Shown here piece after piece: positions 15,304-15,739 of a DNA stretch of 64,000 nucleotides (the stretch's first letter is position 1; each line of letters starts with the position of its first letter). This DNA comes from Escherichia coli. Its GTDB lineage: Bacteria; Pseudomonadota; Gammaproteobacteria; Enterobacterales; Enterobacteriaceae. Location of the stretch: assembly GCF_003334815.1 (NCBI RefSeq), contig NZ_QOWO01000016.1; one strand, written 5' to 3'. Under the pieces are notes generated by a model, which was not told the DNA's origin, ran no database searches, and saw only the letters and a program-made list of their open reading frames with translations. Made by a program: the position numbers and the translations under genes.

Positions 15304-15338
15304 CCCCTTGCTTGGCGCCAACCAGTGCAAGGGGCTTT
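15304..15338 (+). terminator. hairpin terminator candidate after HTH/peptidase operon
   Basis: ccccttgc ... gcaagggg stem followed by cttt. Confidence 0.45.
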
Positions 15339-15453
15339 AGGTGATGAATCCAAGAGGCATCACCACCGTGAACAGCTTCGATAGACAGCCTGAAATTAAC
15401 ACCTTCAGGGAAGATGTTCAAGGGAAAAATCTCTCTTGGTAAGGAGGTGTTTT

Positions 15454-15558
15454 ATGAATGGGTTTGAAATCAATTGCTTCAAAAGCGGCGCCCAAAGGGT
15501 TCCGTTGGGTTTTCTGCCGTTACCGCAAGGTGCGTGGGAAATCAAAAAAAGTCCTTGA
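15454..15558 (+). CDS. small ORF (34 aa) with near-consensus Shine-Dalgarno; unknown
   Basis: AAGGAGGTG 5 nt upstream of ATG; flanked by hairpins; followed by terminator at 15620. Confidence 0.25.
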   Translation: MNGFEINCFKSGAQRVPLGFLPLPQGAWEIKKSP

Positions 15559-15619
15559 TGCTCATGATTACGGGTACGAGGCGTGGGCATTTTTAGTGCG
15601 CTGCTAAGGGTTAGTATTT

Positions 15620-15644
15620 AAGGCACCTGCGGGTGCCTTTTTTG
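15620..15644 (+). terminator. Rho-independent terminator
   Basis: aaggcacctgcgggtgcc stem-loop followed by TTTTTT. Confidence 0.7.
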
Positions 15645-15739
15645 TATCCTCTGACCCGATTGGTGTCTTGCTGAGCCTGATAACTACCAATTTTTGTTAT
15701 TACTATTCTACTATCGCTCAATCATGATTGGCGGGAGTT

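Follow-up and report, generated by a model that had tools for sequence, protein, structure and literature searches.

In a 64,000-nucleotide stretch of Escherichia coli DNA (hereafter the window; RefSeq assembly GCF_003334815.1, contig NZ_QOWO01000016.1) a lambdoid prophage sits next to prfC, and its right end carries a rare mobile module that combines a new structured-RNA family with an uncharacterised small protein on a known regulatory principle. The module comprises a pseudoknotted leader in which a gene for a cis-antisense RNA is predicted to be embedded, a strong Shine-Dalgarno sequence (SD), a gene for a protein of 49 amino acids (aa) and a terminator. In the window and in most of its relatives it forms the last part of an operon that starts with an XRE-type helix-turn-helix (HTH) repressor and a peptidase of the M78 family. 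We propose, with moderate confidence, that the leader pseudoknot holds the SD open and that the antisense RNA would close it.

The approximately 160 nucleotides (nt) ahead of the small open reading frame (ORF), at 15298-15460, are a conserved RNA. In each locus that we inspected its parts follow one another in the same order: a hairpin at the stop codon of the upstream gene, a second hairpin, conserved blocks and the SD. In the window the elements of the leader are as follows.

15304 to 15334, no strand designated: hairpin H1, 12 base pairs (bp) with one bulge, loop CGCCAA on the plus strand and UUGGCG on the minus strand
15340 to 15364, plus strand: hairpin H2, 7-bp stem, loop AAUCCAAGAGG
15366 to 15379 paired with 15410 to 15423, plus strand: long-range helix P3, which encloses H3
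15389 to 15394 paired with 15404 to 15409, plus strand: hairpin H3, loop AAUUAACACC
15350 to 15357, plus strand: 5' strand of the pseudoknot, CCAAGAGG, lying in the H2 loop and pairing with 15432 to 15439
15432 to 15439, plus strand: 3' strand of the pseudoknot, UCUCUUGG, a pyrimidine tract 1 nt 5' of the SD that is also complementary to the SD
15441 to 15449, plus strand: SD, AAGGAGGTG, near-invariant in the core group of leaders

A first covariance model, seeded with five near-identical sequences and the minimum-free-energy structure of the window, recovered 23 full-length leaders on the plus strand. Covariance model R2 found 39 leaders in 601 kb, all on the plus strand, all abutting the start of the ORF and none elsewhere, with a single match in the window. 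Covariation was measured on 38 distinct leader sequences and compared with 500 shuffles. The cells of the leader alignment were paired in 88.7% of cases, as against 60.9% in shuffled alignments and at most 47% when the partners were slid, and 41 of the 48 pairs changed on both sides. Cells with a double change numbered 456 where 127 were expected, the covariation score was 0.633 compared with 0.177, and on none of these measures did any of the 500 shuffles reach the observed value. Both-sided changes were seen at all 12 pairs of H1, at all 7 pairs of H2 (in which 98.8% of the cells are paired) and at all 18 pairs of P3 and H3 together. Counts of G.U against A.C cells were 21:1 in H2, 27:13 in P3 and 16:6 in H3; as G.U exceeds A.C 21 to 1 in H2, this hairpin is a structure of the plus strand.

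The alignment behind the pseudoknot counts had not been fitted to the pseudoknot helix, and yet 7 of its 8 pairs change on both sides, a value reached by one of the 500 shuffles, and the double-change cells (31 against 10 +- 4 expected) were matched by none of them. Its cells are paired in 87.3% of cases, compared with 80.2% after shuffling and at most 71% with slid partners. Relatives carry compensatory versions of the two strands, such as CUGAGAA/UUCUCAG, CCGGGAGG/CCUCCCGG and UUCGGGAGG/CCUUCCGAA. The leader pseudoknot is thus shown by covariation to be real. By duplex energy the tract prefers the H2 loop (-10.4 kcal/mol) to the SD (-7.9 kcal/mol). An anti-sequestor helix, CAAGGGA:UCUCUUG, which appears in the minimum-free-energy fold of the window, was rejected: it is paired in 64.0% of cells against 62.9% in shuffles, and 102 of the 500 shuffles equalled it.

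The leader defines a new family of structured RNA: no family of Rfam 15 matches it on either strand, here or in 12 related loci. Such weak matches as there are, among them one to STnc130 (E = 0.03, minus strand, 15611-15723), depend solely on the hairpin of the terminator downstream. The inverted repeat ggtgatg/catcacc at 15340-15346 and 15358-15364, to which an earlier note on this DNA had drawn attention, is present, and turned out to be one helix, H2, of a larger covarying RNA with a pseudoknot. The note had also suggested a regulatory leader and a structure prediction for the region. The suggestion holds for the ~160 nt upstream of the ORF, which do fold as a conserved covarying RNA across the 38 distinct sequences; it fails for the 34-codon ORF that the note had taken as its object.

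The second line of evidence concerns the minus strand, on which the following elements are predicted.

15298 to 15386, minus strand: predicted cis-antisense RNA of ~89 nt, made of a 5' tail, a stem-loop complementary to H2, the H1 terminator hairpin and a U-run; the predicted 5' end is at ~15386 (+-2)
15416 to 15421, minus strand: -35 element of the putative antisense promoter, TTGAAC, complement of the invariant plus-strand CAAG block
15393 to 15398, minus strand: -10 element of the putative antisense promoter, TAATTT, after a 17-nt spacer, complement of the invariant A..TA in the H3 loop

The positions that are invariant on the plus strand, CAAG and, in the H3 loop, A...TA, read on the minus strand as TTG and TAnnnT with 17 nt between them. 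Of the 38 distinct leaders, 37 have the motif TTGnnn-N16-18-TAnnnT on that strand, at a consistent position, and none has it on the plus strand; shuffles lead one to expect 6.5. H1 has a bias that is the reverse of that in H2, P3 and H3: its A.C cells exceed its G.U cells 22 to 6, and as an A.C cell is G.U on the minus strand, the wobble pairs of H1 are those of the minus strand. In 29 of the 38 leaders an A-run lies 5' of H1 on the plus strand, and this becomes a U-run after H1 on the minus strand. The predicted antisense RNA folds with -39.5 kcal/mol (z = -4.45). Four observations, namely the conservation of the minus-strand promoter motif, the bias of H1 towards that strand, the A-run next to it and the fold, lead us to predict that an antisense RNA of ~89 nt is probably encoded opposite the leader; H1 reads best as its terminator and recognition hairpin, with the complement in the mRNA as the target loop.

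Based on these data we propose the following course of events. Sense transcription would enter from the upstream genes, since the leader has no conserved plus-strand promoter and H1 is without a plus-strand U-run, and by analogy with ImmR/ImmA, DdrO/IrrE and CapH/CapP it would rise when DNA damage or phage attack leads the peptidase to cleave the repressor. In the mRNA, as the covariation shows, the H2 loop pairs with the pyrimidine tract next to the SD, and this pseudoknot would keep the tract off the SD and so leave the SD open. The antisense RNA, made from the minus-strand promoter and terminated at H1, would be fully complementary to H1 and H2; its binding would block the pseudoknot, whereupon the tract would sequester the SD and translation would be off, a step that we model on repZ and Inc RNA of plasmid ColIb-P9. 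An out-of-frame ATG at the optimal distance from the SD, described below, may further lower initiation at the true ATG.

The same covarying helices, conserved loops and pseudoknot abutting the SD would also suit a purely cis-acting sensor with no antisense RNA, either a riboswitch for a small ligand or an autoregulatory operator bound by the 49-aa protein itself, which is highly basic and rich in aromatic residues and has a confidently predicted compact fold; on this view CAAG and UA..A would be conserved as RNA contacts. We regard this explanation as unlikely, as it leaves unexplained why in 37 of the 38 leaders the invariant positions spell TTG-17-TAnnnT on the opposite strand and why H1 carries both a minus-strand wobble bias and a minus-strand U-run.

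It is very improbable that simple signals, mostly at the level of DNA, account for the region, H1 being the terminator of the peptidase gene, H2 an operator of the HTH protein, and the small gene having its own plus-strand promoter. H1 does come after a stop codon, and the H2 inverted repeat does stand beside a TTGAAC-like hexamer. Against this, H1 lacks the plus-strand U-run of a terminator; a plus-strand sigma-70 promoter was sought within the leader and was neither seen by eye nor found as a conserved motif in any of the 38 leaders; and P3 and H3 covary with a plus-strand G.U bias. We rejected a DNA-operator role for H2: covariation links its loop to a tract 80 nt away, which is inexplicable for an operator, and the region upstream of the HTH gene has no H2-like palindrome. 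That region does hold an imperfect palindrome of its own, GACCTGAAGTACTGAAGGTC at 14360-14395, which separates a promoter-like region from the start codon of the HTH gene and is a candidate operator for the HTH protein; no sequence similar to it was found in the leader.

Several points nevertheless weigh against the antisense-gated pseudoknot that we prefer. The window's copy of the antisense promoter matches the consensus weakly (TTGAAC/TAATTT, 7 of 12) and falls below the threshold of a generic scan, so the case for this promoter rests on its conservation, and the invariant CAAG and A..TA positions could be RNA tertiary contacts instead. In the antisense RNA the 21 G.U cells of H2 would turn into A.C mismatches. 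At the six inner pairs of the hairpin expected to sequester the SD, changes are confined to one side, and for this reason the OFF conformation is without support from covariation. The 49-aa protein is not hydrophobic, unlike most type I toxins. As the module also occurs without the HTH and M78 genes, its link with a sensor of DNA damage is frequent but not obligatory. Finally, the proposal as a whole is drawn from sequence analysis.

The coding part of the module contains these features.

15458 to 15607, plus strand: conserved small-protein gene, 49 aa, MGLKSIASKAAPKGFRWVFCRYRKVRGKSKKVLDAHDYGYEAWAFLVRC, in the +1 frame relative to the ORF that starts at 15454
15454 to 15558, plus strand: 34-codon ORF with an out-of-frame upstream start, peptide not conserved
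15544 to 15550, plus strand: A7 homopolymer inside the small ORF
15620 to 15645, plus strand: intrinsic terminator closing the transcription unit, 8-bp stem with 5 G-C pairs, followed by TTTTTT

The earlier note had reported a near-consensus SD, an ATG at 15454 as the start of a 34-codon ORF and a strong terminator behind it. All of these are there: the SD occupies 15441-15449 with a spacer of 4 nt (tttt) after it, the frame ends with TGA at 15556-15558 and its translation is the peptide that was quoted, and the terminator-like hairpin at 15620-15639, followed by TTTTTT, has a folding-energy z of -4.3. What had been overlooked is a second ATG at 15458, 4 nt past the first and in another frame, which opens the conserved ORF. 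The idea of a real small protein is therefore borne out for the 49-aa frame at 15458-15607 and not for the 34-codon frame, the peptide of which is not conserved.

The start at 15458 is fixed by an in-frame TGA at 15455-15457. The 49-aa protein matches phrog_33859 over its full length (E = 1.5e-26, residues 1-49 against profile positions 1-55 of 57), as does its homologue from P2-like prophages (E = 4.8e-24). Among 33 distinct ORFs of 150 nt the entropy at codon positions 1, 2 and 3 is 0.58, 0.49 and 1.39 bits. When the window was aligned with the 90%-identical copy of ECONIH4 and with two P2-like prophages (73% nucleotide identity), the 15458 frame was open in the P2-like copies and gave near-identical products of 49-50 residues, whereas the 15454 frame closed after 24 codons.

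That the 34-codon ORF is a functional small protein or leader peptide, as the earlier note had supposed, therefore deserves very little credence. Its ATG has the best spacing from the SD, 6 nt after GGAGG compared with 10 nt for the true start, and an ATG at -4 relative to the true start recurs in 51 of 90 loci. Its frame, however, runs for only 4-34 codons in the homologues (8 in L006, L014 and L020) and its peptide diverges, which refutes it as a conserved protein; the third-position periodicity belongs to the 15458 frame; and the family hidden Markov model (HMM), the AlphaFold2 confidence and the calls of the Prokaryotic Genome Annotation Pipeline (PGAP) all agree with the 49-aa frame. Paired starts of the form ATGnATG, ATGnGTG or ATGTG are conserved across the homologous loci; in these pairs the out-of-frame ATG has the optimal distance from the SD, and the true start follows 2-4 nt later. 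From this arrangement the ATG at 15454 may be a start that competes with the ATG at 15458.

The SD itself, AAGGAGGTG, is not beyond chance: the 9-mer has one copy in the 64 kb where 0.3 are expected, and 27 of 100 shuffles hold at least one. What makes it significant is conservation: dozens of homologous loci have the SD, the hairpin and a terminator in the same relative arrangement. A terminator stands behind the small ORF in all ten loci in which it was looked for.

With 12 K/R against 3 D/E the 49-aa protein is basic, with a net charge of about +9, and its sequence is without a hydrophobic segment. The AlphaFold2 model (predicted local distance difference test score, pLDDT, 91) is a small beta-sheet with one short helix. 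PGAP annotates the protein in some E. coli genomes as WP_023277296.1, and no relative was found in Pfam, NCBIfam, PADLOC or the Protein Data Bank (PDB). Literature searches on the protein accession, on an M78-associated RNA motif and on tripartite M78 toxin-antitoxin systems returned nothing specific. The protein is probably a nucleic-acid-binding effector or toxin, the production of which would be confined to stress.

The family comprises 58 clusters at 50% identity and 255 at 90%, and its core is always ~45-50 aa long. Most members are from Gamma- and Betaproteobacteria and a few from other phyla, the range extending from Enterobacterales to Nitrospirae; 58 of 100,044 species-representative genomes carry the family. 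Some deposited members depart from the common form. Three relatives are frame-shifted or truncated, two of them (P0027 and P0028) altered at the A7 position: P0027 is truncated at this spot, and P0028 (E. coli AB2G44_19460) has the 15454 frame fused to the true C-terminus, which a one-base deletion in A7 would yield. The third, P0026, shifts a few codons downstream. These alterations could stem from homopolymer sequencing error or from real slippage. P0059 is a metagenomic protein of 128 aa in which an M78-peptidase-like N-terminal region is fused directly to the small protein; the fusion may reflect a deletion across the leader or an assembly artefact. Four AFDB50 members (G7ESJ1, U7GVV4, W0Q1G0 and A0A1G5UV65) carry the UniProt label 'Transposase', a name for which we find no support.

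The module is preceded in the window by two genes, and repeats bracket the whole cassette.

14411 to 14770, plus strand: XRE-type HTH protein, 119 aa, first gene of the cassette, matching HTH/repressor PHROGs and PADLOC capH
14779 to 15300, plus strand: M78 (ImmA/IrrE family) metallopeptidase, 173 aa, with the HExxH motif HELGH, matching PADLOC capP and RmrA
14076 to 14183 and 15847 to 15954: direct repeat of dinI 3'-end sequence, the copies 87% identical and bracketing the HTH/M78/small-gene cassette

The HTH protein matches capH over nearly the whole profile (E = 3.6e-10), and the peptidase matches capP (E = 4.9e-11) at profile positions 56-147 of 242, that is, in the peptidase core only. 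In the identical region of strain 510016, PGAP names the two products 'helix-turn-helix domain-containing protein' and 'ImmA/IrrE family metallo-endopeptidase', and homologous pairs elsewhere carry PF01381 (HTH) and PF06114 (peptidase). The stop codon of the peptidase gene lies 3 nt before H1, and across loci the gap from the peptidase stop codon to the small ORF is a constant 120-170 nt. Of 100 loci in the first set, about 70 have an XRE-HTH gene (~120 aa) and an HExxH M78 gene (~175 aa) directly upstream on the same strand, and in 35 of the 58 species-representative genomes with the family HTH and M78 genes are directly upstream. A second recurrent partner, found in place of HTH/M78, is phrog_2602 (~172-195 aa, no Pfam domain), in loci L080-L100, L113, L118, L124, L132, L151, L152 and L158; these loci have a variant leader, and the viral ones among them (L080-L100) have an insertion, AKAGTPDSERR, in the small protein.

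The variety of upstream partners, which apart from HTH/M78 and phrog_2602 include RelE/ParE with HTH (in P2-like prophages), a TIR protein, a ribonucleotide reductase and an AAA ATPase, could be taken to mean that the small gene is an unrelated neutral moron conserved by hitch-hiking with prophages, and its rarity (15 of 5426 complete E. coli genomes have the 420-nt region, and few species representatives have the family) would agree with this. We think it distinctly improbable, as a moron does not account for the same strand and the same spacing, with the upstream stop codon abutting or inside H1, recurring across phyla; nor for the lack of a plus-strand promoter of its own; nor for the fusion of an M78 N-terminus to the small protein in P0059.

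The window belongs to the E. coli chromosome, as seen from the thr leader at 48726, prfC at 16287-17900 and osmY at 18215. The small-gene region is flanked by the ImmA/IrrE-family peptidase gene and a dinI-like gene. On the left the dinI repeat is what remains of a truncated dinI, and on the right it belongs to an intact dinI-like gene (15846-16094, minus strand); this bracketing suggests that the cassette came in through recombination at dinI. A general link with dinI was rejected, DinI-like genes being near the module in only 8 of 159 loci.

Directly upstream of the cassette, at 12815-14007, are two AT-rich ORFs on the plus strand, one for a putative membrane protein of 84 aa and one for a protein of 313 aa of the LPO_1073/Vpar_1526 family (NF045477, E = 3.4e-24). 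In strain 510016, which is otherwise identical, the same slot holds a reverse transcriptase and a SLATT gene interrupted by IS1, and on account of this difference the slot looks like a variable hotspot for defence genes. Elsewhere in the window there are five hits to naRNA4 (RF02564), within 21257-21536, 35634-35712 and 40030-40107, which are known repeat-derived elements; three of them cluster within ~280 nt between osmY-ytjA and yjjU.

If the proposal is true, the RNA logic that controls copy number in IncI-alpha and IncB plasmids has been recruited to control a small prophage protein, and the element supplies a concrete 'third component' of the kind long suspected for XRE/COG2856 pairs. The results provide a new RNA family with a covariance model, a testable pseudoknot and a predicted antisense RNA. 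They also bear on annotation: the 49-aa family, with its 255 clusters at 90% identity, is often missed, miscalled or frame-shifted by gene callers, and the start with the best SD spacing is here not the start of the conserved protein, which calls for caution in annotating small ORFs. A wider and more doubtful thought, which we put forward tentatively, is that the cassette is a self-contained mobile sensor and effector for stress or phage attack, in which an XRE/M78 switch would make transcription damage-inducible, a gate of Inc-RNA-like antisense RNA and activator pseudoknot would control translation, and the product would be a new non-membrane 49-aa toxin or nucleic-acid-binding effector; prophages would then have in it a type I toxin-antitoxin system of the 'SOS-type', or a module of abortive infection, private to the cassette.

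In its upstream genes the cassette resembles ImmR-ImmA of ICEBs1 and phage phi105 and DdrO-IrrE of Deinococcus, in which genes for an XRE-HTH protein and an HExxH peptidase are likewise adjacent and co-oriented, and XRE/COG2856 pairs were predicted to control an unknown 'third component' (Makarova et al. 2009, PMC2701414). The HMM matches to capH and capP bring in CapH-CapP of the cyclic-oligonucleotide-based antiphage signalling systems (CBASS) as well. Unlike CapP, however, the peptidase is missing the C-terminal sensor domain with its cysteine-switch loop, as it is only 173 aa long and aligns with capP at the catalytic core only, and unlike in capH/capP the controlled gene is downstream on the same (plus) strand and not divergent.

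The mRNAs of E. coli rpsO (for S15) and of T4 gene 32 contain pseudoknots that are bound by their own product and are autoregulatory. The leader is like them in that a pseudoknot abuts the ribosome-binding site of the gene for a small basic protein, for which RNA binding is a candidate activity; it is unlike them in that a model of autoregulation would leave the minus-strand promoter and terminator unaccounted for.

In the DNA-damage-inducible type I toxin-antitoxin loci tisB/istR-1, symE/symR and dinQ/agrB, and also in ralR/ralA, a constitutive antisense RNA, overlapping or cis-encoded, curbs translation of the toxin, and RalR and SymE are type I toxins other than membrane peptides. With the SOS-type loci among such systems the module shares a small protein gene, a structured mRNA leader and, as predicted here, stress-inducible transcription combined with an antisense brake. 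It differs in that the protein is basic and soluble-looking with no hydrophobic helix, in that induction would come from a private XRE/M78 pair and not from LexA, and in that an activator pseudoknot is not a typical type I feature; no antitoxin family of Rfam matches the leader. The module is also unlike type III systems of the ToxIN kind, in which an RNA antitoxin of tandem repeats precedes an endoribonuclease toxin, as there are no direct repeats of at least 20 nt in 15298-15460 and the protein has 49 aa compared with ~170 aa for the endoribonuclease.

The closest parallel is with the repZ-repA control regions of ColIb-P9, IncB and IncL/M plasmids. In ColIb-P9 repZ the initiation region is opened by a pseudoknot in which a hairpin loop pairs just 5' of the SD, and Inc RNA, encoded ~100 bp upstream, blocks the pseudoknot by kissing the target loop (PMC4705826, PMC8053102). 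As in these plasmids, a short antisense RNA is predicted to be encoded ~100 nt ahead of the regulated start. As in ColIb-P9 repZ, the mRNA has a hairpin loop that base-pairs directly 5' of the SD (by covariation here), the same tract can pair with the initiation region, and the antisense RNA would compete with the pseudoknot; even the kissing-loop hexanucleotides, UUGGCG/CGCCAA, are the same pair. The loop motif 5'-rUUGGCG-3' is reportedly named in the title of Asano et al. 1998.

The two systems differ in several details. In our case the mRNA has CGCCAA and the antisense RNA UUGGCG, the reverse of the plasmid polarity, and the pseudoknot uses the second hairpin, H2, and not the hairpin with the UUGGCG/CGCCAA loop. 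In place of a leader peptide whose termination beside the SD sets off pseudoknot formation, there is an upstream gene that stops at H1, 140 nt ahead of the SD, and no ORF ends close to the SD. A very strong SD with AUG takes the place of a weak SD with GUG, and the product is a 49-aa protein, not a replication initiator. Rfam PK-repBA (RF01089) does not match 15000-16300 at E <= 10, nor the leaders of the 12 related loci, and the leader shares no sequence similarity with it either. Locus L020, on a plasmid-like contig of Photobacterium, has a genuine PK-repBA (RF01089, 51.9 bits, 3474-3592) ~600 nt downstream of the small gene, and by this match the classical and the new system coexist on one replicon.

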